Part shown: in pieces, positions 4,612 to 43,490 of the stretch | Numbering within the stretch: position 1 is the first letter of the stretch | How the letters are laid out: every line of letters starts with the position of its first letter | Origin: a virus | DNA: 64,000 nt | IMG/VR virus record: IMGVR_UViG_3300045976_000096 | Location: 32,001 to 96,000 of that record | Reading direction: 5' to 3' (one strand) | Program-made: the position numbers and the translations under genes | Notes under the pieces: generated by a model | Databases searched by the model: none | Seen by the model: the letters and a program-made list of their open reading frames with translations, nothing else | Told to the model about the DNA's origin: nothing

Positions 4612-4680
4612 GCAATCCTGACACATTCCTGACAAATGTTGGTATCATGTTGCTAATGATCAACGAATGAAGGGATTAAT

Positions 4681-5049
4681 ATGATGACATCAGCACTACT
4701 CTGCCTGGCCGCCGCCATCTACCACGAGGCCCGCGGCGAGCCAGAACAGGGCCAGCAGGCGGTTGCGCTGGTCACGATGAACCGGGCCGAGTGGGAGAAC
4801 AAGCGCGTGTGCCGCGAAGTCCATAAGCCGGGCCAGTATTCCTGGGTCGGCACGGGCGCGAAGCACAGCGACAAGGACGCCTGGCAGCGGGCGCGGAAGG
4901 TGGCCGCAGACGTGCTCGACGGGCGCGTCGACGATTTTACGGATGGTGCGACCTACTTCCACGCCCGCAAGGCCCGACCCAGCTGGCGGCGCAGGCTACA
5001 TTACGTGATGACCGTCGGCGGTCATCGTTTTTACAAACCTTTTGAATAA
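4681..5049 (+). CDS. SleB/Hydrolase_2-family cell wall hydrolase
   Basis: CLAAAIYHEARGEP..GQ.AVA.V..NR, QYSW, GATYFH, GGHRFY. Confidence 0.9.
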   Translation: MMTSALLCLAAAIYHEARGEPEQGQQAVALVTMNRAEWENKRVCREVHKPGQYSWVGTGAKHSDKDAWQRARKVAADVLDGRVDDFTDGATYFHARKARPSWRRRLHYVMTVGGHRFYKPFE

Positions 5050-5056
5050 GTCACAA

Positions 5057-6130
5057 ATGACTATGGAAAAGCCATTCGGCCTTATCAGCGATTCACACCA
5101 CCACGCATGGTCGGCGTTCGCCACCATCAACAGCGACGGCATTAACAGCCGGCTACAGATGATCCTGGATGAAACGCTGCGCGCCGCCACCGAAGTCAAG
5201 GCGGCCGGCGGCGACACCCTGTACCACGGCGGCGACCTGTTTCACGTCCGTGGCTCGATCGCGCCATCGGTCCTGAACCCGACCGTGGACGTCTACAGGA
5301 AGATCGTCAACGAGCTTGGCATGCGCGTGGTGATCAACGCCGGCAATCACGACCTCGAAGGCAAAGACGCGCACCGCGTTTCGTCGGCCATCACGGCGCT
5401 CGAGAATGTCGGCTGCTGGGTTGTCAACGCGCCGAACTACGGCAATTTCGACCACATGGTCGTGATCCCATGGATTCGCAACATTGACGACCTGAAAAAG
5501 GCGATCGAGGCGGTACACCCGTCCAACCGGGCCGACTGCGACCTGCTGCTGCACGCGCCGGTCGATGGCGTGATTCCCGGCCTGCCCGACCACGGTCTGA
5601 CCAGCGCATACCTGGCCAGCCTGGGCTTCCGGCGCGTGTTCAGCGGCCACTACCACCACCACAAGGAAATGGAAGGCGGCAAGGTCTACTCGATCGGCAA
5701 CCTGACGCCGCAGACCTGGAGCGACGTCGGCACCAAGGCCGGCTTCATGATCGTCAACGGCCCGGACGTCGCCTGGCGCAAGAGCCACGCGCCGGGCTTC
5801 GTCGAAATCGACAGCACCACCGACCCGGACGAAATCCCGCTGATCGTCGATGGCAACTACGTGCGCGTGAAAACCACGTCCACGAAGGTGTCCGAGCACG
5901 AAACCCTGCGCCAGTTTCTCACCGACAGCGGCGCGGCCGGCGTGACCATCGTGCCAGTGAAAGACCCGAGCGCGGCGCCCACCACGCGCGCCGGCGGCGG
6001 GATCATCAAGGCGGGAGCCACCCTGTCGCAGTCGATCGGCGATTTCATCCACGCCAAGGGCTTCGCGCGCGCGCCGGAACTGGCGGTCGTGTGCGAGGAA
6101 ATTTTGACGCATGTGAGGAGTGCAGCATGA
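5057..6130 (+). CDS. Mre11/SbcD-like metallophosphoesterase nuclease
   Basis: SDSH, GDLFH, GNHD, GHYH motifs; upstream of a Rad50-like gene. Confidence 0.9.
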   Translation: MTMEKPFGLISDSHHHAWSAFATINSDGINSRLQMILDETLRAATEVKAAGGDTLYHGGDLFHVRGSIAPSVLNPTVDVYRKIVNELGMRVVINAGNHDLEGKDAHRVSSAITALENVGCWVVNAPNYGNFDHMVVIPWIRNIDDLKKAIEAVHPSNRADCDLLLHAPVDGVIPGLPDHGLTSAYLASLGFRRVFSGHYHHHKEMEGGKVYSIGNLTPQTWSDVGTKAGFMIVNGPDVAWRKSHAPGFVEIDSTTDPDEIPLIVDGNYVRVKTTSTKVSEHETLRQFLTDSGAAGVTIVPVKDPSAAPTTRAGGGIIKAGATLSQSIGDFIHAKGFARAPELAVVCEEILTHVRSAA

Positions 6131-6330
6131 GCGCTGTTATTGAAAAGAAAGTTCTAGCCCGTGCCGCGGCCGCACTGATGGCCCAGGCCCGCGACATTGC
6201 CGGCCACAGTCAGGCGCCGCACCTGATCAGCCCGGAGGAAACCCAGGAATGGGCCGACGCCCAAGTCCTGCTGACGGCCCTGAGTGCCGTGCCGCGCGTG
6301 AAGCGCATCAAACTGTCGGTGGACGTATGA
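6127..6330 (+). CDS. hypothetical protein
   Basis: ATGA overlap. Confidence 0.5.
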   Translation: MSAVIEKKVLARAAAALMAQARDIAGHSQAPHLISPEETQEWADAQVLLTALSAVPRVKRIKLSVDV

Positions 6331-6644
6331 GCCAGGTCGGCAGCTGCATCTACACCGTCAAGCCCGGCATCAGCTGGGCCTTGATCGCGCACACCGCGCT
6401 GAACCACAGCGGCGACCGCGGCACCGGCGCCGGCGGCATCATGGCCGCGTCCGCCGACATCGCGGGCATCATCCTGGGCGGCGGCATCGACAGCCTGTTC
6501 ATCTTCCCCGATGAGCGCTTGCCGGCCGGCCTGTACCTGTGGACCGGCACGCTGGAGGAAGATGGCGCCTGCCTCGGGCGCGGCGAACGCCTGCACCCGG
6601 ACTGCATGCAGCACTGGCTCGATCATAACGGGACCACGCCATGA
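6327..6644 (+). CDS. hypothetical protein
   Basis: ATGA overlaps at both ends. Confidence 0.5.
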   Translation: MSQVGSCIYTVKPGISWALIAHTALNHSGDRGTGAGGIMAASADIAGIILGGGIDSLFIFPDERLPAGLYLWTGTLEEDGACLGRGERLHPDCMQHWLDHNGTTP

Positions 6645-7171
6645 GCAGGAAACCTATCGACTGGAGCGGGTTTGACAAGTTCAAGGAAGACTTGATCAAC
6701 AAACTGATCATGCACCACGGCATTGATGTTCGTATCAGCGATGCCAGGATGCGCAAGTTCTATTCCGGGGATTCAGGTCGACGCGAGGACTCTTATTACG
6801 CTTTTTGCTCTGCGAACGATTTTTTCGCCGATGAAATCAATGACGCCTGGGATGAAATGAAAAAGGGCTATCCCAAACTTGGCCGCGACGGCACTTGGGC
6901 GTTGATTGCCAAGGGGTTGAGCAAAGAATACATTCTCGTGACAGGATCAGCCGACATTCGTTTCTTTCATCATGAATACGGCATTGCGATATTTAACTTC
7001 GGTCTTGACGAATACAACGATGTCGGATTTTACTTGTGGCGCGGATTGGTTGAAGAAATGGACAGCCCGACCGCGTACAGCCGCGGCGTTTGCACGATTG
7101 AAAAGATCACCGGCGCCGTAGCGGACAGGTGGATCAAGAAAACCAAACCGAAAACCAAGAAGGCACAATAA
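6641..7171 (+). CDS. hypothetical protein, lower GC
   Basis: ATGA overlap; AT-richer codons; C-terminal half resembles the preceding ORF. Confidence 0.55.
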   Translation: MSRKPIDWSGFDKFKEDLINKLIMHHGIDVRISDARMRKFYSGDSGRREDSYYAFCSANDFFADEINDAWDEMKKGYPKLGRDGTWALIAKGLSKEYILVTGSADIRFFHHEYGIAIFNFGLDEYNDVGFYLWRGLVEEMDSPTAYSRGVCTIEKITGAVADRWIKKTKPKTKKAQ

Positions 7172-9117
7172 TGGACATCAAGAACCTTTCGATTACAAAT
7201 TTTCTCACCATCGGCCAGGCGGAACTGCAGCTGGACGGCCGCGGACTTCTTCTTATACAAGGCGAGAACGGCGACGACACGTCGGCCGCAAGTAATGGCG
7301 CCGGCAAGAGTTCCATCGTCGACGCCCTGTGCTGGTGCCTGTACGGCACCACCGCGCGCGACGTGGAGGGCGACGCCGTCGTCAACGCCACCGCCAAGAA
7401 GGACTGCAAGGTCGAAGTCCTGCTCGACGACGATGGCGCCGAGTACCGCATCACGCGCTACCGCAAGGACAAGGTCCACAAGAACCAGTTGTACGTCCAC
7501 AAGCAGAACGCCACCGGCGGCTGGGACGACCTGTCCAAGGGCACCGACAAGGAAACGCAGGAAGTGGTGCGCAAGGTCATGGGCTGTTCGCTGGACGTGT
7601 TCAAGGGCGCGATCTACGCGGGCCAGGAAGCGATGCCGGACCTGCCGGGCATGACCGACAAGCACCTGAAGCTGCTGATCGAAGAGGCGGCCGGGGTCGA
7701 GGAGCTGTCCGAAGCATTCACGGAAGCCTCTAAACGGGCGCTGGCGGCGAAAAAGGACTTCGATGCTGCCGGCATGCATGTCAAGTCGCTGGAACAGCGC
7801 CTGGAGGCTCTGAACGAGTCCGTGACCAACGCCGAAGCACAGCACAAGCTGTTCGAGGACGGCCGGCGCGACCGGGCGAAAGCCGAACTGGTCAAGGTTA
7901 AGCCGATCAGCGACGGGATTGCTGAAGCCAATGGCAAGCTGGCCGCTTACGATGTTCCCAAGCTGGTGGATCGGCGCCGCGACCTGAATGCGCAGCTGGC
8001 CGGTCGCAAGGCGGAAGAAAAACGTCTCGACGAACTGCAGGCGGCGCTAACTGCCACCACCCGCGCCGCCGCCGGCGCACGCGCCGCCGCCGAGCACCAG
8101 CAAGCAACCGTCAAGCGCCAGGAGCAGGAATTGGCCGACGTCGAGAGCCTGGTCGGCAAACCTTGCGGCGAGTGTGGCAAAACCTATTGCGAGCACGACC
8201 TGGACGAGGCGCGCGAAGCCAGAAAACGCACGATCGCCGCCAGCAAGGAAGAACTGCTGCTACTGCTAAAGACACTCAAGACGGTCAATGGCGAGCGCGA
8301 CAAAGCCAGTGCGGCGGTCGATACCTTCCGCGCCGGCATGACCGACGTCTCGGCCGCCGCGGCCGAACTGACGAAAATCAACGACGACCTGGCGCAAGCC
8401 CAGCGCTACACCAACGCCATCGCCACGCTGGAACGCGACATGAAGCAGGTCAACGTGGATGCGCGCGCCAAGCTGACCGAGCCGAACCCATGGGACAAGG
8501 TGGTGGCCGGCAAGCGCGAAGACCGCCAGCAGTGCGAGAACGACCTCGGCGCCGCGCAAGACCACGCGAAGAAGCTGGAAGCGGTCGCTGACCTGTTCGC
8601 TGACGCAGCGAAGGTGTTCGGCCCCGCGGGCGTCCGCGCCCACATTCTCGACACGGTGACGCCATTCTTGAACGCGCAGACCACCGAGTATCTGGGCGCG
8701 CTGGCGGACGGGAACATTCACGCGACGTGGTCCACGCTGGCGAAGACCGCGAAGGGCGACCTGAAGGAGAAGTTCAACATCGAGGTGGAGAACGACAAGG
8801 GTGGCAAGACCTTCAAGGCGCTGTCCGGTGGCGAGAAGCGCAAGGTGCGCCTGGCCGCCGCGATGGCGCTGCAGGACATGGTCGCCTCGCGCGCCGAGAA
8901 GCCGATCAACCTGTGGATTGGCGACGAAATCGACCACGCGCTCGACGAGCCGGGCCAGGAGCGTCTGATCGGCGTCCTCGAGAAGAAGGCGAAGGAGCGC
9001 GGCACCGTGTTGGTGATCAGCCACAATGCACTCACGGACTGGATCGACGATGTCATCACCGTCAAGAAAGCCGGCGGTGTGTCGATTGTTTCTGGCAGTA
9101 CCCATCGTGGCTTCTGA
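7171..9117 (+). CDS. Rad50/SbcC-like ATPase
   Basis: NGAGKSS Walker A, coiled coils with CGEC zinc hook, LSGGE signature, IGDE Walker B, ISH. Confidence 0.93.
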   Translation: MDIKNLSITNFLTIGQAELQLDGRGLLLIQGENGDDTSAASNGAGKSSIVDALCWCLYGTTARDVEGDAVVNATAKKDCKVEVLLDDDGAEYRITRYRKDKVHKNQLYVHKQNATGGWDDLSKGTDKETQEVVRKVMGCSLDVFKGAIYAGQEAMPDLPGMTDKHLKLLIEEAAGVEELSEAFTEASKRALAAKKDFDAAGMHVKSLEQRLEALNESVTNAEAQHKLFEDGRRDRAKAELVKVKPISDGIAEANGKLAAYDVPKLVDRRRDLNAQLAGRKAEEKRLDELQAALTATTRAAAGARAAAEHQQATVKRQEQELADVESLVGKPCGECGKTYCEHDLDEAREARKRTIAASKEELLLLLKTLKTVNGERDKASAAVDTFRAGMTDVSAAAAELTKINDDLAQAQRYTNAIATLERDMKQVNVDARAKLTEPNPWDKVVAGKREDRQQCENDLGAAQDHAKKLEAVADLFADAAKVFGPAGVRAHILDTVTPFLNAQTTEYLGALADGNIHATWSTLAKTAKGDLKEKFNIEVENDKGGKTFKALSGGEKRKVRLAAAMALQDMVASRAEKPINLWIGDEIDHALDEPGQERLIGVLEKKAKERGTVLVISHNALTDWIDDVITVKKAGGVSIVSGSTHRGF

Positions 9118-9766
9118 CCGGCGCGATAAAATAGATGAACGCGACTTCGTGATCATGACGGGCCGGCGTGCCGGCAAGTCAATGCTCGCGAAGATGCTCA
9201 AGCCTCGACCCGAGATTCGCGGGACCGAGGCTTCGTTCGTCATCATGGACGAATGTACCGACAGCCTTGCGTTCACCAACGAGGATTTCCGCAAACTTTA
9301 CCTGACCGATCCAATGAGCAAAGACGACACCCTGACCGAAGTCCAGCAGGAGCTGGACAAGCTGTGCGAGCGCATGACCGCCTATTTCGCCGCCGCGCCC
9401 GACATCGACATCACGACGACCCTGTCCGGCCCCGGCAACCTGACCGTGAGCGTGCCCGGCAAGGGCTACCGCAAGCGCAACCACGTCGGCGGCGAGGAAT
9501 TCGTCGCCAAGAGCGCGCGCCGCGGCGCCTCCGACAAGATCATCTTCGTGTTCAAGCCCGCCTCGGCCAGCGAATACACGGAGATGGAGATGACCGAGGT
9601 TGACGCAGCCGCCCAGCTCAATGGCGGGCGCGCGCTGCTGAACGCGGCTGCCGGCGGCGACTTCTTTGCCGAACTGCGCAATATCCGCGCCATCGGGCAA
9701 AAGCAGAAGCAGGCGCTCGAAGTGGTGGCCAAGCAGGCGACCTACCCGGACTTCGGATCGTGGTAG
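9107..9766 (+). CDS. hypothetical protein with C-terminal FGSW (start uncertain)
   Basis: Long ORF with phage codon bias; alternative ATG at 9314. Confidence 0.55.
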   Translation: MASDRRDKIDERDFVIMTGRRAGKSMLAKMLKPRPEIRGTEASFVIMDECTDSLAFTNEDFRKLYLTDPMSKDDTLTEVQQELDKLCERMTAYFAAAPDIDITTTLSGPGNLTVSVPGKGYRKRNHVGGEEFVAKSARRGASDKIIFVFKPASASEYTEMEMTEVDAAAQLNGGRALLNAAAGGDFFAELRNIRAIGQKQKQALEVVAKQATYPDFGSW

Positions 9767-10059
9767 CGCCCCTGAACTTCCCGCCGTACATCCACGAACC
9801 GTGGGGTGCGGCCGAGCCGATCAAGACCGCCATCAACAACGTCTCGTCCAATGTCGCCGGCACCCTGTCGACGCTGCACGCGGCGGTCGCCAATCTGGAG
9901 ACGCACACCGGCGTCTCTACCAGCACCGTCAGCGGCGGCCCGACGCCGGAGCAGCGCATCGCCGTCCTGGAGGCGCAGGTGCAGACCCTTTCCAAACAGG
10001 TCGAGGCGCTGACCAAGCGCCTGGCCGACATTCCTCAATCCCCGACCGGGGCCTGGTAA
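9760..10059 (+). CDS. small coiled-coil protein with C-terminal DIPQSPTGAW
   Basis: Overlaps the previous stop; heptad pattern. Confidence 0.55.
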   Translation: MVAPLNFPPYIHEPWGAAEPIKTAINNVSSNVAGTLSTLHAAVANLETHTGVSTSTVSGGPTPEQRIAVLEAQVQTLSKQVEALTKRLADIPQSPTGAW

Positions 10060-10072
10060 CACAAGGAGCAGC

Positions 10073-10675
10073 ATGAGCATTATCAAAATCGTAGGACAAG
10101 ACCCGAGTATGCGGAATTTCGGCGTCGTCCATGCCGACCTGGACGTGGACACGCTGAAATTCACCATCACCAGCATGCGCGTGATTCGCACCGAAGCCGA
10201 GAAGGACAAGGCGGTGCGCAAGGTTGTGCGCAAGAACAGCGAAGACTTGGAGCGCGCGCGCCTGCTGCATGCCGGTGCCATCGAGTCCATCGAGAACGTG
10301 ACGATGGCCTTCATCGAGGTGCCGGTCGGCAGCCAGGATGCGCGCGCAATGGCAAGCTACGGGATGTGCCTGGGCGTGATCGCGGCGGTGGCCAACACCA
10401 TCCCGATCATTCAGGTCACGCCCGGCGAGGTCAAGCTGGCCGGCTTCGGCTCCAAGGATGCGACCAAGGCCGAAATGATCGAGGCGATGATGAAGAAACA
10501 CCCGGAAGCGCCCTGGCCCATGCGCAAGCTCAAGGGAGAAATGGTGCCGAACGCCGCCGAGTGCGAACACCTCGCCGACGCCTGCGCGGCGATCGAGGCG
10601 GGCCTGCAGACCGATGAATTCCGCCAGGCGATCAGCGTGTTCAAGCGGATGGTCAAGACGGGCGCCATCGCCTGA
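10073..10675 (+). CDS. RuvC-like Holliday junction resolvase
   Basis: VGQDPS.RNFG, FIEVP, ATK.EM, HLADA. Confidence 0.85.
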   Translation: MSIIKIVGQDPSMRNFGVVHADLDVDTLKFTITSMRVIRTEAEKDKAVRKVVRKNSEDLERARLLHAGAIESIENVTMAFIEVPVGSQDARAMASYGMCLGVIAAVANTIPIIQVTPGEVKLAGFGSKDATKAEMIEAMMKKHPEAPWPMRKLKGEMVPNAAECEHLADACAAIEAGLQTDEFRQAISVFKRMVKTGAIA

Positions 10676-10684
10676 TTTGCCGCG

Positions 10685-10734: not shown

Positions 10735-10744
10735 GGAGAGAAAC

Positions 10745-17830: not shown

Positions 17831-17831
17831 C

Positions 17832-18467: not shown

Positions 18468-18569
18468 AGGCATGACGTCAGGCTAAGTCACCCATGACTT
18501 GTAAGTCCTGACGTTCTTATTCATACTGTGTATGTCGCGATGTGCGACAGACATTTAGAGAGACGCTCG

Positions 18570-19349: not shown

Positions 19350-19449
19350 TGTTGCCTGGAGCGATCAGTCAGTTATGACTTGTCGCTCCTGATTCGCACC
19401 TGTAAGATGGTGCTTGTTACAACTACGCGCATGTGCGCAGGGATGATCA

Positions 19450-23345: not shown

Positions 23346-23431
23346 ATCCGCGCACGCTCCAGATATGGGCGTGCATAATACCACCATGACAACAACGTCA
23401 TGACTGACTTACTTAACCACATGGAGAAAAT

Positions 23432-24636: not shown

Positions 24637-24951
24637 ATGTCCGACAATACCGTCACCGAAAAAGCCGAGACCTACAACCCGAATCACCTGCTGGACGTCC
24701 TGCTGGCCAAGATGCAGCTGAAAAACGACGCCGCGCTGTCGCGCATGCTGGAAGTGGCGCCGCCGGTGATCAGCAAGATTCGCCACAACAAGCTGCCAGT
24801 CGGCGCCAGCCTGCTGCTGCGCATGCACGAAGTCACCGGCATTTCCGTGCGCGACCTGCGCGACCTGATGGGCGACCGCCGCCAGAAGTACCGCCTGTCC
24901 GACGCGCAGGGCAAGCCGAAGACCACCGAATCCACCACCAACCAGGAGTAA
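24637..24951 (+). CDS. XRE-like HTH DNA-binding protein of a host-like family
   Basis: LKNDAALSRMLEVAPPVISKIRH helix-turn-helix. Confidence 0.75.
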   Translation: MSDNTVTEKAETYNPNHLLDVLLAKMQLKNDAALSRMLEVAPPVISKIRHNKLPVGASLLLRMHEVTGISVRDLRDLMGDRRQKYRLSDAQGKPKTTESTTNQE

Positions 24952-25362: not shown

Positions 25363-25598
25363 TGACGGCGGCAAGGGCGACGACCGTCGTCCCGAGGACA
25401 ATGAGCGCTATCGGCAGAACCACGACCGGGTCGACTGGTCGAAGAAGGTGCCGCCAGCGCCACCCAAGCCCCAGGCGTGCTCCCGCTGGCCATTCGATGT
25501 CCGCAGGATCGACGAATAGCCGGTCCCGCATCCTGACATAGCTTGGTATCATGTGCGTCAGTCAGCAATGACCGACGCACTTTTCATTTGAGGACAAC

Positions 25599-25886: not shown

Positions 25887-26446
25887 CCTTCCTGATCAAC
25901 GGCATCGATACCGAAACCACCGGCGTCGACCAGCCCAAAGGCGACCGCATCATCGAGGTCGCGATCCTGACCTTCGATTTCGCCACTCGCAAGATGGTGG
26001 ACCGCTACGTGCAGCGGATTGACCCCGAGCGTCCCATCGCCGCGGCCGCCCAGGCGGTACACGGCATTTCCTACAGCGACCTCGTCGGCCAGCCGAAATG
26101 GGAAGACGTGGCGCCCGAGGTTGGTCGCCGGCTGGACGCGGCGCCGCTGGCGATCGCGCACAACATGGATTTCGACGGCCCCTTCATCGCCGGCGAAATG
26201 GTGCGCGTGGGCCTGCCGCCGCCGAATCCGGTCGCCTTCTGCACCATGCGGAACGGGCGCTGGGCGACGTTCGACGGGAAAAGCCCGAAGCTGCAGGAAT
26301 TGGCGTTCAGTCTTGGCGTCAATTATGATCCGAAGCTCGCACACGCCGCCGAGTATGATGTTGCAATTATGATGGCGTGCTTCTTCCGCGCATACGATCG
26401 TGGCTTTTTCAAGCTGCCGGAATCCCTTCTGGCGAAAGCAGCATGA
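25883..26446 (+). CDS. DEDDh 3'-5' exonuclease (DnaQ/epsilon-like)
   Basis: IDTETTG, VHGI, AHNMDFD, AHAAEYD. Confidence 0.92.
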   Translation: MTFLINGIDTETTGVDQPKGDRIIEVAILTFDFATRKMVDRYVQRIDPERPIAAAAQAVHGISYSDLVGQPKWEDVAPEVGRRLDAAPLAIAHNMDFDGPFIAGEMVRVGLPPPNPVAFCTMRNGRWATFDGKSPKLQELAFSLGVNYDPKLAHAAEYDVAIMMACFFRAYDRGFFKLPESLLAKAA

Positions 26447-27201
26447 TCCCGGCGCAGCCTGGCATTTATGCCATCGTGAACCTGACCAACGGCCGGCACT
26501 ATGTCGGCAGCGCCATCAACATCAGAAAACGCAAGGCTGTCCACCTATGCGAGCTACGTAAGGGTAAGCACGATAACTCCAAACTGCAGCGCGCTTTCAA
26601 CAAGTACGGCGAAGCCGAATTCAGGTTCGATGTGTTGGAGCTGGTAGCGGACACCACGCTGCTGATCGAGCGCGAGCAGTTCTGGATGGATTCAACCAGG
26701 CCCTTCTACAATATCCTGCGCGTCGCCGGCAGCTCGCTTGGTCGAAAGGCGACCGACGAAACCAAGGCGAAGATCGCGGCTAAAGCCCGTGGCAGGAAGT
26801 GCAATTTCACTGCCGAACATCGAGCGAACATCAGTAGGGCGACCAAGGGCAAGCGTCACGGACCACTGTCGGAAGCGCACCGGGCGCAGATCAGCGAGGT
26901 CCAAAAAGCCCGCTGGACCGATGAAGAACGACAGCGGTATGGCGAGCGCGCAGCGACGCTATTTCTCGGCAAGGAGCACACCGAGGAGACCAAGCAGGCG
27001 CTGCGTGACGTCAAGGCGGTCTACGACTACCTGATTACGGCGCCGGATGGCACCGAGCACCGGACCAACAGCATGACGAAGTTCTGCGCCGACCATCCCG
27101 AACTGCATGCCTGCGCCATGATGCGGGTCGCGCACGGCAAGCAGAAGGCGCACAAGGGATGGACGGTCATAGCCACGCACAAGCCTGGCACCGTCGCGTA
27201 A
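26443..27201 (+). mobile_element. free-standing GIY-YIG homing endonuclease with NUMOD3 repeats
   Basis: GIYAI...YVGSA, R...H, EREQ, YN, H(T/S)EETK repeats. Confidence 0.9.
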
Positions 27202-27234
27202 GATGGTGTCAGTTACACAACAGGGAGAAAGAGC

Positions 27235-27593: not shown

Positions 27594-27669
27594 TCGTCGC
27601 CAGCTGAATCATCCGAACGGGCGCCGCGTGCGCCCGTTCATACTTGAGACTCAACAAAGGGAGAAATAC

Positions 27670-29689: not shown

Positions 29690-29781
29690 GCGCGCTGCGC
29701 GGCGGGTGCGCGTTGGCCACACCAGCGCCGCATGCCCGCTGCGATAATGCATTCATCGACAACAACCCAAAAGGGAAAATC

Positions 29782-30467: not shown

Positions 30468-30802
30468 GCAAATCGATCAAGGATAGCGACATCCTGAAGG
30501 AGGCGCGCAAGCACATCGAGCAGGACAAGTACATCGTCCTGTGCGTGGCGATCAGAAATTCATTCAGGTACTGCGGCGTCATCGAGCGCCACGCCAAGCT
30601 GATCGCCTGGATCGAGAAGATGCTCGGCCCGCACTTCTACTACTCGCACTGGCTGAAGGCAAACCATCCGGCCTTCTACCACAAACAGTACCGCAAGTGG
30701 AAGATGGGTGGCCGCTGCGGCTCGCCCTGGAAGGAAGGCCGGCTCGCCTGGCTCGACTGGATGATCGCCGAGTGCGAAAGGGAGGAGACCCAGCATGGCT
30801 AA
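30461..30802 (+). CDS. hypothetical protein
   Basis: ATGGTAA overlap; RLAWLDWMI motif. Confidence 0.6.
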   Translation: MVSKSIKDSDILKEARKHIEQDKYIVLCVAIRNSFRYCGVIERHAKLIAWIEKMLGPHFYYSHWLKANHPAFYHKQYRKWKMGGRCGSPWKEGRLAWLDWMIAECEREETQHG

Positions 30803-31016
30803 GAAGGCGAACTACTCGGCGTCGAAGCGTATCAACGACGTCATCGTGGCCCTGATCCGGGCGGGCTGGGAATACCTCGGACGCAACAAGCATTCGCGCG
30901 TGCGCAGCCCGGACGGCAAGACCACGATCACGGTGCCATTCAAGATGAGCGACCACCGCGCGGAGCTGAACTGGATCAGCCAGCTTCGCCGCATGGGTGT
31001 GGAGGTGCCAGCATGA
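30795..31016 (+). CDS. HicA-like toxin (dsRBD fold)
   Basis: L...GW....R.KH.RV..PDG...ITVP. Confidence 0.65.
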   Translation: MAKKANYSASKRINDVIVALIRAGWEYLGRNKHSRVRSPDGKTTITVPFKMSDHRAELNWISQLRRMGVEVPA

Positions 31017-31411: not shown

Positions 31412-31782
31412 AGGTGGCGCCTGCGGGCGCCTTTTCTTTCGGCCCGGCGCCGCCTTGGCGATCCTCGGCGCTGACGCGGACCACTGCAGCCATCCTGACC
31501 CGCGCCGCACATGGCGTGATACGCGCGGGCGCGCATTTTCATCTACCCGCCTGCCCGGCCCAGGCAACGTGCAGCGCCGACCTGGCCCCGCCGCGAAACC
31601 CGCTATGCACGCCTGATCTGGACCCGTAAAGTTCACCCATCGACGCAGCGTACAGAGCGCAGCGAACGACGCAGCAAGGGCAGCGCAGCGGGCCACGAAA
31701 TTGTCCCTATCGCCATACACCGACCTGCATACTTGACCTGTCGCGATGTGCGACACCACCAAACCTTTTTATGGAGTTTGAC

Positions 31783-32952: not shown

Positions 32953-33831
32953 ATGACAAGTGGCGTCTACTCCATCACCAACACCGTCAGCGGCAAACGG
33001 TACATTGGTAGCTCGCAGAAGATCGCGACACGCTGGCGCATCCACCGTAACGATCTGCGAAACGGCAAGCACCACAGCCGGCATCTGCAGCACGCCTGGA
33101 ACCTGGATGGCGAGGATGCCTTCGTATTTGAAATCCTGCTCGAGTGTGGCGTCGACGATCTGTTACGTGAGGAGCAGCGACTGATGGATGAAAGGCGCGC
33201 AAGGGAAGGCAACCACGGCTACAACACGGCACCCGTTGCTGGCTCCCGTCGTGGTGTTCCGCATTCGCCCGAGGTGCGCGCCAGGATGAGTGAGAAGGCA
33301 CGCGCTCGCCCGCCAATGAAGGATGAACATCGCAAGGCGCTATCTGCCGCACTGCGTAAGGCACGATCGGAGGGTCGTCTGTTCACCGACGAGCATCGAC
33401 GCAAGATTTCGGAGTCACTCACCGGAAGGCAGTATTCGGATGAAACCCGCGCGAAGATCGGCGCCGCCGGCCGCGGTCGTCCGGTATCGGACGAAACGAA
33501 GGAGAAGCTGCGTGCCGCCTTGAAGGGCAAGCCGCTCTCCGACGAGAACTACCAGCGGCTCTTGGAGCGCAGCCGCACGACCAATGTGATCACGCCTGAA
33601 ATTCGAGCCAAGATGGTCGAATCGCGCAAGGCAACACTGGCCGCCAGGCGCAAGGAGGTCGCCGCACAAATCATCGCGCTCAAGGAGGAAGGGCTGTCGT
33701 TCTCCAAGATCGCGAAGCGTCTCACCGAGGATAAGGTGCCGACGCTGAATAGCAGGAAAGAAGGCGCGGAGCCAAGCTATAACTGGTTTCCCGCCATTGT
33801 TATCAAAATCTATAACGAGGCAACACCATGA
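32953..33831 (+). mobile_element. free-standing GIY-YIG homing endonuclease with NUMOD3 repeats
   Basis: GVYSI...YIGSS, REEQ, GYN, SDETRAKI/SDETKEKL repeats. Confidence 0.9.
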
Positions 33832-34169: not shown

Positions 34170-34484
34170 GGAAGGGCGCCGCGGGCGCCTTTTCTTCGCG
34201 CCGGCCAAGCGCCTAGGACCGGGCCGCGATACTGGGCACCCAGCGTGCGCGTCGCCCGCGCACGACCCGCGCATGCCTGCCCACAGAACGCGCTGTACGC
34301 GCTTGGATCAGTCCCGCCCATACCCGCGCACCAGTCGCGCATCCGGCCGCCCAGAACGCGCGCTATGCGTTTCGCGGCAATGGGCATTGGCTGTTCGGCT
34401 ATAAGTCAGCCCTGACTTGCAGGCGAGTGGCAGGACGACGTACCATTCTGTTGTCGCGATGTGCGACGCAACCGGGAAATCCAA

Positions 34485-34790: not shown

Positions 34791-35236
34791 TGGGCAAGAT
34801 CCACGAGCGCTTCAAGAGCCAGGCGACGCGCCAGCACACGATCATGGTGGACGCACGCGTGGCCCAGGCGGCCGCCAACCAGAAACCCGACACCGCGCGC
34901 CGCATGAGCGTCTTCATGGCCGACCTCGACCGCGTGCGCGCCGACCGTACGCTCGATACCGCGGCGCGCCACTTCACGATGGATCGCCTGGCCGAGGAGG
35001 CGCGGGCGCTGGGTCTCAAGGGTCGCTGGAACCTGCTGTGCAACCGGGCCCAGTGCCTGCGCACGCCGGCGACGTGGTACAACCGCGGCAGCTACGCCTT
35101 TTACTGCGCCGACTGCGCGCGCGACCTGAGCGCCGACCGGTTCAACCGGCGCGAAGCCGAGAGACTGTTTGGCGGGTCGCTGTGCATCAACATCGGCAGT
35201 GCCGAAGAAGCAGCCGAGCTGCACGTAATGCCATGA
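34790..35236 (+). CDS. zinc-binding hypothetical protein
   Basis: CNR..C, YC..CA. Confidence 0.6.
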   Translation: MGKIHERFKSQATRQHTIMVDARVAQAAANQKPDTARRMSVFMADLDRVRADRTLDTAARHFTMDRLAEEARALGLKGRWNLLCNRAQCLRTPATWYNRGSYAFYCADCARDLSADRFNRREAERLFGGSLCINIGSAEEAAELHVMP

Positions 35237-35490
35237 TCACGCCATTTCCGTACCCGGTGGGCCACAAGGTCCGCCGCCTGACCGAAAAGCCGAAGCTGTA
35301 CCGCGGCTGGACGATCTACGCCTACCAGACATGGTGTCAGCAGTACGGTGCCGCGCACGGCGAGTGGCACGACCTGGCGCTGGCGTGCAAGACAGGCGCG
35401 CCGGTGATCGCCGGCGTGGGCGACCTGTACAAGGCAATCGACCAGGCGGTCGAGACGGGCCAGCCACCCGCCGCACTCTGGGCGTCATAA
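35233..35490 (+). CDS. hypothetical protein
   Basis: ATGA overlap. Confidence 0.5.
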   Translation: MITPFPYPVGHKVRRLTEKPKLYRGWTIYAYQTWCQQYGAAHGEWHDLALACKTGAPVIAGVGDLYKAIDQAVETGQPPAALWAS

Positions 35491-35525
35491 TAGCTTTACC
35501 GCAACAACGTAATAAGGGAACAACG

Positions 35526-37077: not shown

Positions 37078-37116
37078 TGGCGGGAAGTCTGAAGCCCGCG
37101 CGCGGCGCGCGCCAGC

Positions 37117-37497: not shown

Positions 37498-37578
37498 CGC
37501 GCCGCGCACACGCCGCAGTTGCGCAACGATAATAACTACATCGCAAGTTCGCGATGACACGAAAGGGAGAAGGACAAA

Positions 37579-38524
37579 ATGTTAACGGCGCAGATTCACG
37601 ACGTCACGCTCGGCAAGTACGACATGCCGCAGATTCACTTCAGCCTGCACGACGGCGAGGACACCGGCATGGTGTCGTTCGAGGACACGATCGGGTTGGC
37701 GCATGCGACCTTCCTGATCGAGCACTCGATCGTCACCGCCAACAACGCCTACGGCCGCATGCTCAACGCCTTCATCGGTGCCGATCACCCGCAGGGCCTG
37801 GTTGGCCAGGAATTCATCGATGTCGAGGAGAACGAGGAATGAAAACCATCGAATGCAAGCGCGTCGACCTGTGGGACGGCGGCGAGCGGCACAACTTCGG
37901 CTACCGGGTCAACATCGGCGTGCCGGACGGACTGATCGAACTGCGCGATCCGCATTGCAACATCACGAAGGAAGTGATCACCGTTTTTGACAGCCTCGCC
38001 GAAGTCGACGACAACAGCGTCGCCAAGCTGCGCAAGAGCGCCTGGAACAAGCTGACCCCGCAGGAACGCCAAGCCCTGAACATGAAGGAGCCGACATGAG
38101 CCGCCACACCATCGCCATCACCATCGACAGTCCCGCCGACATGAGCGCAAACCAGGCGACCGCGTTTGTCGCCGGCGCGATCGACACTGTGCGTGGCAAC
38201 TACCTTGCCATGCAGCGCACCGGCATGCTGAACGGCAGCGCCGACAAGTTCGCCGAGAACCTCGGCGGCAGCGTGATCGTCACGGCGCTGCAAAGTCCGA
38301 TGCGCGCCAAATTCGCGCTGGAGGTTGGCGCGGAACTGCAGAACGACATCGCCAAGCTAATCGAGGAAAAGGACGGCATGCTGCCGGCGCCGGCCCGCGG
38401 CCTGGCGCAGGACATCATCGACATCGTGATGCGCAGCCAGCTGGTTCACCCGGAAGCGCGCGCGCTGTACGAAGTGATGCCGGACACGGCCGGCTCGGTG
38501 CCGCGAACCCAGAAGGCGGACTGA
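37579..38524 (+). CDS. three coupled hypothetical ORFs (37579-37842, 37839-38099, 38096-38524)
   Basis: ATGA overlaps, RBSs, upstream KCC-class promoter. Confidence 0.55.
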
Positions 38525-38616
38525 AACCCAGCCTCGTTGCCAAATTGCACTGCCTGTGTTGCGTTGCGATAATGACTCTATCGACACAACGCGCACAGCG
38601 CAGAAAGGGAAACATC

Positions 38617-38916
38617 ATGCAGCAAGTCAAGACCTTATTTCCGCCCGCCAGCCTGCAGCGCGACGCCTGGTTCGGGTACGCGCCGCAGCTGGTCGCCGCC
38701 TACCGCGCCGGCCAGTACCGCGCCGGTCCCGCCTTCTACACCCGCAAGGCGGGCGAGGACGCGGTCGAGGAAGCGTTCGACCTGTCCAACAACCCGTCGC
38801 GCCAGGACGAGCGCGACCTCGTGTTCGGCGACCACCGCAGCGTTTCGGTTGGCGACATCGTGGAGGTGGGTAGTGATGCCTACCTGTGCAAATCCTCGGG
38901 CTGGGAGAAACTGTGA
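38617..38916 (+). CDS. YodL-like domain protein
   Basis: RSVSVGDIV......Y.C...GW. Confidence 0.6.
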   Translation: MQQVKTLFPPASLQRDAWFGYAPQLVAAYRAGQYRAGPAFYTRKAGEDAVEEAFDLSNNPSRQDERDLVFGDHRSVSVGDIVEVGSDAYLCKSSGWEKL

Positions 38917-39905
38917 TGCTGTGGATGATCACCGGCGACAAACTGCACAGGGACGGCCCGAACCTGATCGGCCGCTGCGGCGACGACCTGTGCGCGAGCC
39001 TGGGCGACATTCGCGTGCCGCCCACCCGGCAGCCCGGCATCAAGGCGGACTGCAACTACGATTTCCGTCTGCTCGATGGCGACGGCGAGCATTGCTTCAC
39101 CGGCGTGTGCAAGGATCTCGACGACCAGGATGGCGACGCCGCCTTCGAGCCGCTCGACATGTTCATGCACGGCTTCGGCGTGGTGGAAATGCAGTACCGG
39201 AAGAAAGGCGAGAAAGAATGGAAAACACTGTGAACCCCGCCGAGCGCATCACCGACACCATGCTGCAGGCAGCGCTCGGCGTCGACGACCTCGACGAGGC
39301 GATCGGCACCATCATGGAGCAGGTCGGCATTACCGATGGCGGCATCGCCGGGATGGTATTCTCGGGCGCCTACAACCACGACTGGTGGCGCGAAGCTGAC
39401 CGTCAGGACCGCTTGTGGAAGCTGTGCGAGTGGCGCGACTACGAACAGACGCTCGCCTGCATTTAACGGATTTTTACAATGACCGGCATACCGCCGGTCA
39501 CTTTACCAAGAGGAAGTGAAGATGTGCCAAACTGAAAACAAAACCCCGGCCCTGTCGCTGGAAGCGAACCTGCTGGCTGCCCTGCTGGGTCGCGGCATCG
39601 CCCTCGACGTGGCCCAGGCGGCGACCAAGGACGTGATCACCACCTTCGCCAACAGCGAGGTGGCGCACCCGTGCTGGGCCGATCAGGTGCGCGGCATTGC
39701 GCCGGCGGAGAGCATCGAGGAAAAAGAGACCACCCAGGCCAGCATCGACCCGGACGGCACGATGGAGCTGTTTCCCGGCGTACGCGTGCAAGTCGTGCGC
39801 ATCGGCGAGGACGACAAGCCGGAAGACGTCACTGCCGGCATGCCAGAGAGCCTGAAGGCGGTGTTGCGCGGCATTGCCACGACGCTGGAGGCGCGCCGCA
39901 AGTAA
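38916..39905 (+). CDS. three hypothetical ORFs (38916-39233, 39218-39466, 39522-39905)
   Basis: Coupled or RBS-led ORFs; terminator at about 39933-39960. Confidence 0.5.
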
Positions 39906-40281
39906 CCCACAGACAACTTGACACTTAGGCAAGAAAAGCAGGCTTCACGCCTGCTTTTTGCGTGATAAAATCCCTCCTAGGAAAAGTTCTTTGAAATCAA
40001 GGACTTACGCCAATCTTATTGCGGAGTAAGTGCGGGCCTAACGCTGAACTCCTGCAACCACAAACCAGCACAGCAGGTCAGCACGCGCGACACCGTCGGA
40101 AAGGGCATCAGAACGCGCTACAAGCGCTTGGATTGACCCGGTTGATACCCGCACACCACCCAGCGCAAAAACGTCTCAAAAGCCCGATTTTGCGTTTTCA
40201 GGCTTGACCATTGCCGGGCACAATCCGCGCACCGGGCGCTACACTTGCGTATCGAGTACTCAACCATACGAGGAGAGCAGG

Positions 40282-40560
40282 ATGAACGGCTACCGGGTAG
40301 CGAACGACATGGAGTACAAGCTGTACCAGGAGATTACCGGCCCGAGCGTGGCCATGATGGAGAACGGTGCCGGCATGCGGGAACTGGAGCGGGCGGTGAA
40401 AATCGCGGAAGCCCGGCTCGAGCGCCTCGGCATGGTGACGACCCAGGCGGGCCTGCTGGTGCGCGACGACCAGGACATCTTGGATACCGACGACCTGACC
40501 GCCGCGGCAGCACGACTGAAGATGTTCGACATCCTCAACAGGGTCATGCAGGCTCCCTAA
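40282..40560 (+). CDS. hypothetical protein
   Basis: AGGAG RBS. Confidence 0.5.
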   Translation: MNGYRVANDMEYKLYQEITGPSVAMMENGAGMRELERAVKIAEARLERLGMVTTQAGLLVRDDQDILDTDDLTAAAARLKMFDILNRVMQAP

Positions 40561-40697
40561 GAACGCGACCTACCGGCGCAAGGAAATTATAGCCCGGATT
40601 GCAATCGACGCAACTTATCGCGCCGCAACGCTTCCGAAAATAATTGTTTAAGCTGTAGAAGTATGAAATACCTATAGAAAGCAGAGGAGAGTGATAA

Positions 40698-41003
40698 GTG
40701 AACGCACCGGCCCCAAGTCCACGCCCGCCGCTACATTTCATCGTGTGGCGCGTGACCTACAGCAGCGGCAGGACCACCGTCTCGGCGATCGACAAGAACC
40801 AGTTCGAGGCGCACATGGAGGAAAGCCCCGACTACCTCGACGGCTCGGCCTGTGTGAAAGCAATCAGCATCGCCGAGGCGGAAGACCTCGCGCGTGATCC
40901 GAACCTGTGGGAACCGATCCCGGCCCACGTAATCGAACAGGCACAAGAGCAACACCGGCAAGCAAAACTCGCGGCCAAGGCCCATTACCCGGCCGCATGG
41001 TAA
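40698..41003 (+). CDS. hypothetical protein with C-terminal YPAAW
   Basis: AGGAG RBS, GTG start. Confidence 0.5.
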   Translation: MNAPAPSPRPPLHFIVWRVTYSSGRTTVSAIDKNQFEAHMEESPDYLDGSACVKAISIAEAEDLARDPNLWEPIPAHVIEQAQEQHRQAKLAAKAHYPAAW

Positions 41004-41034
41004 GCGAAACCACCAGGCCACAACAAGGAAAACC

Positions 41035-41400
41035 ATGAAACCCGAATACGAACAGGCCTTGAAGGAAGTCGCCGACCTGCACAACGAAATGTACCGGATG
41101 CGGCGGCAAGCGGACAACAAGCTGCGGCAACTCGTCAACGACCTCGTCAAGGAAGACAACCCGCACACGATCATGGAAATGCTCAGGAAGATCCCACCAG
41201 GCCCATACCGCATGGAACTGAGCATTCACCACGCCGACCGGCTTCAGGACAAGAACTACCGGCACCGCAGCGAACAGGCAGCAATCAACCTGCCCAACGC
41301 ACGCACGCAATGGAACAACGCAGTGAAAGGACTGCTGCACGGCACACCAAACGGCATCATGACCACATACACGGGAGGAACAGGAACACCACGACGGTAG
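41035..41400 (+). CDS. hypothetical protein
   Basis: AAGGA RBS. Confidence 0.5.
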   Translation: MKPEYEQALKEVADLHNEMYRMRRQADNKLRQLVNDLVKEDNPHTIMEMLRKIPPGPYRMELSIHHADRLQDKNYRHRSEQAAINLPNARTQWNNAVKGLLHGTPNGIMTTYTGGTGTPRR

Positions 41401-41584
41401 ACAGACATCATGACCACCATACCGGTCCTCACATACACATCACATGCCTGTGTAGAGACAAGGATTGCATGGGCACATGGAAGGATCGCCTGGCGACGTA
41501 TTGCCTCCTTCAATCCACCCGCAATCCCGGCTTTCCTTCCGTTCTCCCTATGAGAACACCCCGTTGCCAAGGCGGTAGCGGGTA

Positions 41585-41600
41585 TGTTTCACGTGAAACA
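41585..41600. promoter_or_regulatory. parS: parS palindrome (chromosomal consensus)
   Basis: Perfect TGTTTCACGTGAAACA. Confidence 0.85.
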
Positions 41601-42001
41601 TCGCTATAAGGATCGATCCTCGGCCCGCCTTGGCCCTATAAGAACGCGGCTTTCATCCTATAAGGACACTCTTATACTTTGACCCGAAATCCTATAAGGA
41701 TGGGGTTGCGCCTAGGCGAAAACGACTCTTATACATTATATCGCGACAGCAAACGGCAGCTGCGGCGACGGGTAATCCGAAGTTTCGCGCGGGCGCGCGG
41801 AAGGGCCAAGGATCGCCTAGGAACCCACCCGGCCACGGCGTGCCGAGGCTTTCCTAGGCCCAGGGAGCGGACGATGCCTGCGGTGCGCCAAGGATTTCCT
41901 AGGCCCTCGCCTGGTCGGTGAGACGGGCGTGAACGAGCCACCCACGCGCCGCACCTGCGCGGTCATACTACGTTCTCACCAACCACACATGAAAGCACAG
42001 C

Positions 42002-42292
42002 ATGACCCTCTTACACATCACCACGGGCGCCGAGACCGAAACCGAAGGCACGATGGTTGTCGTCTTCAACGTCACCGAGAACGGTAAGCCTTACGCCCAG
42101 ATCGCGACCGAGTCCAACAATGACGACCAGTGGGCCAAGATGCAGGTCACGCTCGCCGCGGGCGTCTACGTCGATCCGCTGTGGGTGCAGGTCGAAGCGA
42201 TGAAGGCGGTGTACGACGTCCTGAACCGCGACGGGTACAGCACCTTCGCCGACCTGTTCGCCGAGGTCGGGCACATCGTCTTCGAGATGTAA
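42002..42292 (+). CDS. hypothetical protein (cassette 1)
   Basis: Own promoter at 41937. Confidence 0.6.
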   Translation: MTLLHITTGAETETEGTMVVVFNVTENGKPYAQIATESNNDDQWAKMQVTLAAGVYVDPLWVQVEAMKAVYDVLNRDGYSTFADLFAEVGHIVFEM

Positions 42293-42451
42293 GGCGATCA
42301 CACCGGTTCGCACCGGTGTTTGTCTCCCAGGCCATGCCAAGGCTTGCCAAGGCTTGCCGGCCACCCTTGAGGACGCTGCGAACAAGCCACCCACCCGCCT
42401 GTGTCGGGTGGGCATAATGGTGTTTCTTCAACGACACATGAAAGGGACATC

Positions 42452-42796
42452 ATGCACCATGTACAGGCCACCATCACCCATTACAGCAATGCCCAGGCGC
42501 GCAACCAAGCTGTCGGCTTATCGGCCTTGCGCGCGCTTGCGCACGACCCGGCCTGCAAATTCTACGCGCACGACGGGAACGACTACCTGATCGTCGAGAC
42601 CGAGCTTGCGGGCGCGCCTCTGTACACCTTGATCGTGCTGACCAACCTGATCGACATCGGCGCGCACAACGGGATGCAGAAAGTCGAGACCGGCCTGGGC
42701 GACGTCATCGCGCTGTTCAGCACAGGCATCTACCACGAAGCGCTTGCTGAGGCGCTGCAGATCATGAAAGACGATGCAGGCCTGCACGACGAATAA
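42452..42796 (+). CDS. hypothetical protein (cassette 2)
   Basis: Own promoter at 42386. Confidence 0.6.
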   Translation: MHHVQATITHYSNAQARNQAVGLSALRALAHDPACKFYAHDGNDYLIVETELAGAPLYTLIVLTNLIDIGAHNGMQKVETGLGDVIALFSTGIYHEALAEALQIMKDDAGLHDE

Positions 42797-42995
42797 AGTA
42801 CAAGGCGGTTGTGAGGCCCAGTGCTGACCTGGGCCTCGAAACGCTGACCTAAAATTGCCTAGGCGACAATGGGTCCGCACGCCAACGCTGACCCAATGCT
42901 GACCGGCGTGCTGAAGGAAGGCTGACCTGGGCCACGCACACGCCTCACCTGGCTTGCGACAATGGGTCTTCACCAACCACACAGCAGAGGTTTTC

Positions 42996-43223
42996 ATGTC
43001 CAAGTTCTACAACTTCCGTCCCGAAACCATCAACGGCGTGACCATCCCGGCCGGCACCGCCTTACGCGACCTTGGCGACGGCGCCATGCCCCAGATGCTC
43101 CGCTTTGAATTGCCGACCAGCCTGCACCACTGCGGCATGCGCCACATCGACCTGTATCCACATCAGGTCGGTGACAGCGCCTTGTATGACGAGTTCGCGG
43201 CAGCGATGCGCGACCGGCCGTAA
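42996..43223 (+). CDS. hypothetical protein (cassette 3)
   Basis: Own promoter at 42931; terminator at about 43232-43256. Confidence 0.6.
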   Translation: MSKFYNFRPETINGVTIPAGTALRDLGDGAMPQMLRFELPTSLHHCGMRHIDLYPHQVGDSALYDEFAAAMRDRP

Positions 43224-43490
43224 CAAGCCACAGGCGCCCACCAGGCGCCTTTTGTATTGACCGGGCCACGCCAAGGCTTTCCTAGGCCGTTACGAGGCCG
43301 TACGCCGGCCACCAGGCGCAAGCCAGGCCACCAGGCTTGCCGAGGCCACAGCCAGGCCATAGGCCGTGCGGCGGGCGCGGGATGGACACGGGTATGGATG
43401 ATGTGACCGGGCCAGCCACCCGCCGCAGCTGCGTCGTCATACTGTGGTCTCTGCTGCGATGTGCAGCGCAACCCACCCTAGAAAGAGACC

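Follow-up and report, generated by a model that had tools for sequence, protein, structure and literature searches.

Within a 64,000-nucleotide stretch of viral DNA (bases 32001–96000 of the 112,422-bp contig IMGVR_UViG_3300045976_000096; hereafter the window, in the coordinates of which positions are given unless stated otherwise), promoter-like sites recur in which one or two short words, (G/T)CC(A/G/T) or KCCD, stand at fixed distances upstream of a −10-like hexamer. As judged by comparison with related genomes, these promoter-like sites form a genuine class, strand-specific and conserved across phages, with the paired words as its constrained part. The explanation that we prefer, while holding it with slightly less than even confidence, is that the sites are genuine clade-specific promoters at which a phage-encoded DNA-binding factor on the words recruits or stabilises RNA polymerase. 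What we infer from the DNA is that the sites act as promoters, how their positions are numbered, that a factor exists and which protein it is, and when expression takes place. In the literature we found no description of these promoters or of phages in this clade.

To define the motif neutrally, we searched the whole 112-kb genome for KCC-N8-KCC-N13-hexamer, requiring A in the second and T in the sixth place of the hexamer and at least four of six matches to TATAAT. We found 13 matches on the + strand and a single one on the − strand, as compared to 1.0 ± 1.0 per strand in 200 dinucleotide shuffles (maximum 4 on the + and 6 on the − strand). When both gaps were varied over a 7×7 grid, only one of the 49 spacing combinations, (8,13), is enriched, with 13 matches versus 0–3 elsewhere on the + strand. 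One of the 13 lies outside the window and is a chance match in coding DNA; the 12 two-word sites in promoter zones are located 25–52 bp before a + strand start codon. A profile made without reference to the motif gives the same picture: among 57 intergenic −10-like hexamers that end 15–70 nt before a + strand start codon, 35% have a KCC that starts at offset 16 and 21% one that starts at offset 27, all other KCC offsets stay at or below 7%, and hexamers within genes have 3–4% at every offset. By both the grid and the profile, 11 bp is the only enriched word period.

Our numbering assumes that the hexamer occupies −12 to −7, which places the words at −39 to −36 and −28 to −25. In the pooled set of 63 sites from this genome and its relatives (33 two-word and 30 one-word), the consensus is CKCCD at −29 to −25 plus KCCD at −39 to −36. 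The base that follows each KCC was not selected for, and it is C in only 1 of the 96 pooled words, so the word is KCCD, just as a preliminary description of the window had written it. The hexamers of the two-word sites have A at −9 in 22 of 33 cases and either A or C at −8 in all 33, both being unselected positions; A at −11 and T at −7, as in canonical sigma-70 promoters, are present as part of the search definition.

The sites in the window are as follows.

4616–4648, + strand: two-word site; TCCTGACA twice in tandem with an 11-bp period, then TGG-TATCAT; upstream of gene 4681 and SbcCD-like genes (downstream genes identified by Pfam).
18506–18527, + strand: one-word site; TCCTGAC-N9-CATACT, TTG at −35 to −33, palindrome TAAGTCA-N4-TGACTTG centred near −41.5; ortholog in L032.
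19387–19408, + strand: one-word site; TCCTGAT-N9-TAAGAT, TTG at −35, palindrome upstream.
23347–23379, + strand: two-word site before the AAA ATPase gene; three orthologs aligned.
25531–25552, + strand: one-word site; TCCTGAC-N9-TGG-TATCAT; ortholog at L032:12748.
27172–27204, + strand: two-word site; GCCACGCACAAGCC-N13-TAAGAT; overlaps the end of gene 26443–27201.
27612–27644, + strand: two-word site, ambiguous, within a perfect 10-bp hairpin, then CATACT; layout kept in L032.
29716–29748, + strand: two-word site; TGC-GATAAT, with the extended −10 element TGn present.
31712–31733, + strand: one-word site; GCC-N13-CATACT, then the hairpin GTCGC-GATGT-GCGAC.
35459–35491, + strand: two-word site; GCCAGCCACCCGCC-N13-CATAAT; within the end of gene 35233–35490.
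37501–37533, + strand: two-word site; GCCGCGCACACGCC-N13-GATAAT.
38552–38573, + strand: one-word site; GCCTGTG..TTGC-GATAAT, TTG at −35, TGn present.
40213–40245, + strand: two-word site; GCCGGGCACAATCC-N13-TACACT.
41937–41969, + strand: two-word site; first of four consecutive units of promoter, small gene and terminator-like element.
42386–42418, + strand: two-word site; 14-mer and spacer form an 8-bp inverted repeat.
42931–42963, + strand: two-word site; TGC-GACAAT; near-identical cassette in the relative L029.
43411–43443, + strand: two-word site; GCCAGCCACCCGCC-N13-CATACT.

The preliminary description had quoted eight two-word and five one-word sites, and the letters of all 13 are exactly as it gave them; its list was incomplete, however, the two-word sites at 27172, 27612, 35459 and 40213 having been missed. 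It had also pointed to CAC at offset +6, which is indeed present in seven of the eight sites (the exception being 29716). We reject this interior CAC as diagnostic of the class: frequent here and in the relative G002, it is not so in G001, L038 and L041, and it probably reflects shared descent or residual A at −32 and C at −31 of a −35 hexamer.

The two subclasses differ at the −35 position. As the preliminary description had noted for its eight, canonical TTGACA is missing from the two-word sites: TTG at −35 is absent from all of them, the best match to TTGACA at a spacing of 16–18 bp is at most three of six, and a sigma-70 consensus scan gave no match at these sites. TGn and T at −12 are each found in only 3 of the 12 two-word sites of this genome; in the pooled set, G is present at −14 in 22 of 33 and T at −15 in 14 of 33. 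Since the two-word sites are devoid of a −35 and mostly of TGn, and mostly have a base other than T at −12, it is plausible that they depend on an extra factor. All 12 are located between 4.6 and 43.4 kb, 11 of them between 23.3 and 43.4 kb, and small open reading frames (ORFs) of unknown function lie downstream of all except 4616 and 23347. The sites that the preliminary description had listed as carrying a single KCC are real as such, but three of the five (18506, 19387 and 38552), and about two thirds of the pooled set, also have TTG at −35 to −33: T, T and G are present at −35, −34 and −33 in 20, 20 and 18 of the 30 pooled one-word sites, respectively. This TTG begins a canonical −35 hexamer at a spacing of 17 bp, and the upstream word appears where the −35 TTG is missing. 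In the one-word sites the word is often KCCTGAC and, in this genome, the hexamer is often TATCAT or TATGAT; here these sites lie upstream of genes for replication and recombination and of the cobT-cobS-sigma-PolIII operon.

Seven one-word sites carry the palindrome TAAGTCA-N4-TGACTTG with its right half at −39 to −33 and its centre near −41.5. An 18-bp form, TAAGTCA-N4-TGACTTA, has 33 matches in the whole genome at up to three mismatches, 29 of them wholly intergenic (examples in the window: 324, 10695, 11347, 14755, 18484, 19365, 22174, 32880, 34402, 50942, 57070, 59108, 61745 and 62811). Besides its place centred near −41.5 at one-word KCC promoters, it is found in the spacer and −10 region of −35-less TATAAT promoters, over or beside the TTGACA of late-gene promoters, and just past the −10. 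Judging by this distribution, the palindrome resembles an operator for a global dimeric regulator that represses from some positions and activates from others; the dispersed C1 operators of P1 or its Lpa late promoters offer a comparison.

Relatives were recovered by a pattern scan of IMG/VR followed by protein-anchored searches. They comprise G001 (114 kb; AAA ATPase 62% identical), G002 (a 58-kb fragment), G004 and G005 (111 kb each), L038 and L041, and a 3-kb metagenome contig that was the single yield of a metagenome scan with the AAA ATPase; a genome-contig scan with the same protein returned no relative. An exact-pattern scan of IMG/VR for the 14-mer gave 30 chance singletons and one true relative, L029. 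The pattern recurs in five related metagenomic phages. Matches to its strict form are co-oriented with the genes throughout, with 11 co-oriented and 0 opposite in this genome, 7 and 0 in G001, 4 and 0 in G002, and 3 and 0 in G004, where reversed-pattern controls gave 0; L041 has 3 and 0. L038 and L040 (the latter in G005) have the matching architecture with the variant hexamers TACCAT, TACTAT and GACCAT, and the pattern is absent from Pseudomonas phage nickie and SSU5. The preliminary description had singled out two words one helical turn apart, and these are the constrained part: in G001, L039 and L041 both words are kept but the eight bases that separate them are not. In five pairs of orthologous promoters from this genome and G001, positions −39 to −36, −28 to −24, −11, −8 and −7 are retained, while the spacer and the DNA further upstream have drifted; in relatives, conservation does not extend to the triplet at the true −35 position.

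Certain sites carry local features of their own. At 23347 the DNA from the words to the −10 holds an inverted repeat (hairpin z = −4.0); it is kept in two orthologs with differing stem bases and may be a local, gene-specific operator. We considered, and rejected, the possibility that the sites are hairpin or cruciform promoters of the N4 type, or terminators: the fold of −41 to −11 beats shuffles only at 23347, 27612 and 42386, hairpins are absent at 8 of 11 sites, and the set (mean z −1.15) does not differ from GC-matched background (p = 0.57). With only three significant sites and no difference from background, hairpins do not define the class. An Rfam scan of 22–46.5 kb found no family. The four units at 41.9–43.9 kb each end in a terminator-like hairpin (read from the sequence; one hairpin was scored), and their promoters at 41.9–43.4 kb are alike in sequence from −40 to about +35. 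Between 41560 and 43400 each two-word promoter is preceded by its own short-repeat array (CCAAGG/CCTAGG words, TGCCAAGGCT in 2.4 copies, GCTGACC in six copies, AGGCC runs), and CCTAGG arrays also precede the orthologous promoters in L029. Just past the −10, the short hairpin GTCGC-GATGT-GCGAC and its variants occur at 18530–18550, 31735–31755, 34450–34470 and 43450–43470 as well as in L029, L032 and L040; this conserved hairpin is probably located at the 5′ end of the transcripts. A CA-rich leader of the type TCATCGACAACAAC..AAAGGGA is common to many KCC promoters.

In the mechanism that we favour, a sigma-70-family holoenzyme would read the weak −10 box, nA(T/C)A(A/C)T, mostly with a base other than T at −12 and with G at −14 in about two thirds of cases, and the −35 hexamer would be replaced or supplemented by the words: the near one always present, the far one only in the two-word subclass. 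The words would be located about 5–6 bp on either side of the −35 centre and, because they are 11 bp apart, would share one helical face, roughly opposite to the face of sigma region 4. Because they flank the −35, as the binding sites of the activators do in lambda PRE and in the GlnR and SARP systems, we envisage a phage-encoded factor that sits on the words and recruits or stabilises the polymerase; the exact tandem at 4616, with the same 8-mer twice at 11 bp, suggests head-to-tail binding units. The one-word promoters could probably be started by the host polymerase, since they keep TTG at −35, in this genome often have T at −12, and precede replication genes and the phage sigma operon, and the 12 two-word promoters, mostly before small ORFs, would depend on the factor, resulting in an early-to-middle cascade.

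Who might read the words? The phage encodes a sigma-70-family protein of 251 amino acids (genome 25806–26561) about 6 kb before the window, which, together with its conserved neighbour, the preliminary description had overlooked. It matches PHROG 351, ‘RNA polymerase sigma factor’, at 7e-10, with Pfam Sigma70_r2 just under the cut-off; its family profile matches SigA chains at 1.5e-9 over regions 2–3; and all top Foldseek matches of its AlphaFold model (predicted local distance difference test, pLDDT, 83) are sigma factors, with about 250 aligned columns. A tblastn search with the protein gave no match. In the profile alignment it is without the W433/W434 pair of region 2.3, so a TATAAT-like −10 preference cannot be assumed for it. 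The gene forms a pair (genome 25806–27217, 6.2–4.8 kb ahead of the window; L036:5806–7217) with a downstream gene for a 218-residue protein (genome 26561–27217), located between the cobS-like gene and that for DNA polymerase III alpha. The 218-residue protein belongs to a PHROG of unknown function, co-occurs with the sigma on the same contigs and is zinc-ribbon/helix-turn-helix-like, with four invariant N-terminal cysteines and a helix-turn-helix-like C-terminal segment. Structure prediction gives a weak indication of a complex between the two: the score is 0.39, the best of three controls having 0.00, the runs have 41% or more of their contacts in common, and the partner pLDDT is at least 70. 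In calibration, 58 of 80 solved complexes and 2 of 110 mismatched pairs attained the mark, but only 7 of those 80 complexes, along with both mismatches that passed, did so with scores of up to 0.60. The operon lies behind one-word promoters with a −35 TTG and TATGAT, so the host polymerase could make the sigma before anything else, which makes the pair a natural candidate for the switch and suggests a cascade other than the island-first one discussed below. On these grounds the sigma and its neighbour are our prime suspects as readers; other helix-turn-helix candidates are a Cro/C1-type protein of 104 residues at 24637–24951 and an XRE-type protein of 154 residues at genome 21384–21848.

KCCD words also show a conserved pattern of avoidance, in the following zone.

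44097–46329, no strand assigned: KCCD/HGGM-poor zone with the iteron array (44099–44272), ORF 44833–45519 and the second parS (45548).

This 2.2-kb zone contains 1 word versus 70 ± 6 in dinucleotide shuffles (minimum 49), in agreement with the KCCD-free island of the preliminary description. In four relatives a gap of 1.06–1.1 kb free of KCCD/HGGM covers the homologue of ORF 44833 (40–70% identical; L038:9808–10870, L039:9778–10886, L040:7224–8320 and L041:6670–7773), while elsewhere the longest gap is about 100 bp. From the depletion and the conserved word-free gap we conclude that something reads, or acts on, single KCCD words in DNA. We rejected ORF 44833 itself as the activator: it has no Pfam family, matches two PHROGs of unknown function and only hypothetical Atlas clusters, and its model is all-helical, with no PDB match and no DNA-binding fold. 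The cascade in which the island is expressed before the KCCD promoters and switches them on through this ORF, as had been proposed, is thus left with the ORF’s sigma-70-consensus promoter at 44654–44682 as its sole support. The purge of the word from a conserved zone of 1–2 kb around the iteron array, parS and ORF 44833 is hard to explain by transcription alone and could point to an undescribed DNA-level recognition system; the link to this zone is the most unusual aspect of the promoter class.

Several observations weigh against a dedicated factor on the words. The Mor, CII, CP76, OmpR-type C-terminal domain, MotA and AsiA families are all absent from the phage: we found no match to PF05269 or PF06892 (CII and CP76) in six frames at E ≤ 1, none to PF09114 or PF09010 (MotA and AsiA), and none to PF00486 (Trans_reg_C). 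At about 5 bits per word, a free-standing activator would meet hundreds of chance pairs; it is because the words carry so little information that we favour a reader tethered to the polymerase. Several two-word sites look like paralogous cassettes, and as these are alike from −40 to +35, part of the similarity within the genome is shared descent. The numbering rests on the assumed position of the hexamer at −12 to −7. Finally, the phage’s own sigma might read these promoters directly. In this last scenario, the main rival, which we judge unlikely, the sigma, perhaps with its 218-residue neighbour, would form the holoenzyme, KCCD would be its upstream specificity element, and the non-T base at −12 would discriminate against the host sigma-70. 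Sequence profiles (PHROG, Pfam and family profile) and the Foldseek search with the model concur on the identity of the sigma; it is present in G004, which has the strict pattern, and in G005, where the pattern occurs only with variant hexamers, and both sigma and pattern are absent from nickie and SSU5. The co-occurring Cys/helix-turn-helix-like neighbour and its weak complex score would also fit, as would the one-word TTG/TATGAT promoters, which would let the host polymerase make the sigma early. Region 4 of the sigma-70 family, however, needs a spacer of 16–18 bp to the −10, whereas the gaps from word to hexamer are 13 and 24 bp, beyond its reach; the triplet at the true −35 is not conserved, the tryptophan pair of region 2.3 is missing, other −35-less classes in this genome (palindrome plus TATAAT) could equally be targets of the sigma, and Rhizobium phage RHEph10 has a distant sigma-like gene but no pattern.

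We give little credence to the idea that host sigma-70 alone uses a weak or extended −10, the KCC words being repressor operators or serving some other DNA-level function. It could account for the frequent G at −14 (22 of 33) and for TGn in many relatives (for example, TTGCGATAAT and TTGAAACAAT), for the proper −35 TTG with a 17-bp spacer at one-word sites, and for A at −32 and C at −31 of the −35 hexamer being kept in 9 of 10 two-word sites of this genome. Yet the two-word sites here are without TTG in every case, without TGn in 9 of 12 and without T at −12 in 9 of 12, and by E. coli rules such sites would be nearly inactive alone (PMC2613000); a repressor operator, moreover, leaves unexplained both the strict phasing of the two words with the −10 and why the upstream word stands where the −35 TTG is missing. 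That KCCD is the target of a phage DNA modification, with the promoter words read in modified form, we regard as improbable. The depletion around ORF 44833 and its conservation in four relatives would fit, as would the presence nearby of two genes with ParB_N domains and an ABC-type ATPase, but no modification enzyme was identified (the proposed GNAT gene, 55415–56392, has no Pfam match at E ≤ 0.01), and a nuclease, a silencer or a host defence with no bearing on transcription could explain why the island avoids the word. A broader view, to which we assign a low probability, is that KCCD is the genome-wide ‘read’ word of an undescribed phage system, that a polymerase-tethered reader at −28 and −39 defines middle promoters, and that the plasmid-like ori/par/ORF 44833 island, in all relatives, is kept wholly without the word and thereby escapes the system; candidate readers would be the sigma with its zinc-ribbon/helix-turn-helix partner or a reader of base modification at KCCD. 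Finally, we find it very hard to believe that the pattern has no function and merely reflects GC-rich composition, hairpins or recently duplicated intergenic cassettes: while the likeness of the four sites at 41.9–43.4 kb and the significant hairpins at three sites speak for it, the shuffles, spacing grid, strand bias and position relative to genes all argue against it, as do words conserved around a divergent interior in six genomes and the lack of hairpins at most sites.

The genome has a GC content of 62% and nearly all of its genes on the + strand. Through the portal, terminase and capsid genes it has distant kin in SSU5-like phage-plasmids, RHEph10 and nickie (portal protein identity 53–56%), while a DNA-level search of GenBank phages found no near relative. 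Large genes encode DNA polymerase III alpha, CobT/CobS-like and DnaB-like proteins, primase, ligase, SbcCD-like proteins and ribonucleotide reductase; no phage RNA polymerase was seen in the genome. Given the iteron-like array (15-bp unit, 11.6 copies), two perfect chromosomal-type parS sites (TGTTTCACGTGAAACA; 41585–41600 and 45548–45563) and the ParB N-terminal domain in two genes, the genome is probably plasmid-like in lifestyle, a phage-plasmid. Massilia and Duganella records list homologues of the sigma-like protein as ‘sigma factor’; these homologues occur on several contigs of about 110 kb, and the host is thus probably an Oxalobacteraceae bacterium. Among other genes, 51797–52096 encodes a protein with the Acb2/Tad1 hairpin domain (Pfam 1.6e-17), a candidate anti-CBASS or anti-Thoeris sponge, and 30795–31016 a small protein with a HicA-toxin match below threshold. 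Three putative homing endonucleases are of the GIY-YIG type: 32953–33831 (confirmed by Pfam: GIY-YIG and NUMOD3), 26443–27201 and 54024–54581 (the latter two by eye, from a GIY..YVGS motif). The DNA polymerase III alpha (genome 27501–30953; L036:7501–10953) has a C-terminal domain of the uracil-DNA-glycosylase superfamily (Pfam UDG 4e-7). At 59098–59141, the called portal start lies only 9 nt past a TTGACA-N18-TACCAT promoter, and so either the portal mRNA is nearly leaderless or the start codon is miscalled.

If our preferred explanation, a phage factor on the words, is correct, these sites would be a second well-defined case, after lambda CII, of phage promoters with two words straddling the −35, and would extend the two-word design to the scale of a regulon (at least 20 promoters) in an uncultivated, phage-plasmid-like clade of about 110 kb with its own sigma. 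From it follow exact predictions open to mutational tests, on which word is needed, on a period of 11 bp and on a distance of 13 bp to the −10, and a short list of candidate readers comes with it.

Architecturally, the closest known system would seem to be lambda CII, nearer than T4 MotA. Lambda PRE is a TGn/−10 promoter whose −35 is very poor and whose −10 is non-canonical, and which depends on CII (PMC2613000); read from NC_001416 it is TTGC-N6-TTGC-N13-AAGTAT. As at PRE, PI and PaQ, two short direct-repeat words straddle a poor −35 here; as at PRE, the proximal word ends 13 bp before a non-canonical −10, and the two systems agree in where the first word begins (−39) and where the second ends (−26). 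The differences are that the word is (G/T)CC(not C) with a period of 11 bp here and TTGC with a period of 10 bp in lambda, that no protein of the Phage_CII or CP76 family is encoded here, and that at least 20 promoters serve replication genes and small ORFs here, as compared to three lysogeny promoters in lambda. GlnR, lambda cII and AfsR are all activators that bind upstream and downstream of the −35, and the AfsR direct repeats, located 8 nt upstream of the −10, overlap the −35, with two domains in adjacent major grooves (PMC11301090). Like the sites of OmpR, PhoB, GlnR and the SARPs, ours are direct repeats one helical turn apart, on one face and just upstream of the −10; they share with OmpR, PhoB and SARP sites tandem repeats of 11-bp period that overlap the −35, the site at 4616 being a tandem of the TCCTGACA 8-mer. 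The phage has no Trans_reg_C, however, and beyond KCC the two words differ from each other at most sites. With promoters of phage sigmas (SPO1 gp28 and gp33/34, T4 gp55, phiEco32 gp36) the class shares a phage sigma-70-family gene and a departure from the host consensus, but the word positions do not fit contact by region 4. The MotA/AsiA-dependent middle promoters of T4, to which the class had originally been likened, resemble it in combining a host-type −10 with a phage-specific element instead of the −35, and in forming a large class that drives replication and small genes; a low-information element would, in both, suit a polymerase-tethered reader. The T4 MotA box is TGCTT centred at −30. 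The original proposal is thus partly supported, in that the class is real, strand-specific and conserved and may be of the activator type; its likeness to MotA is not, since here the element is bipartite, there is no MotA box and no MotA or AsiA homologue is encoded, and, while T4 uses its own sigma only for late genes, the phage described here also encodes a sigma, one that is a prime candidate for reading the words.

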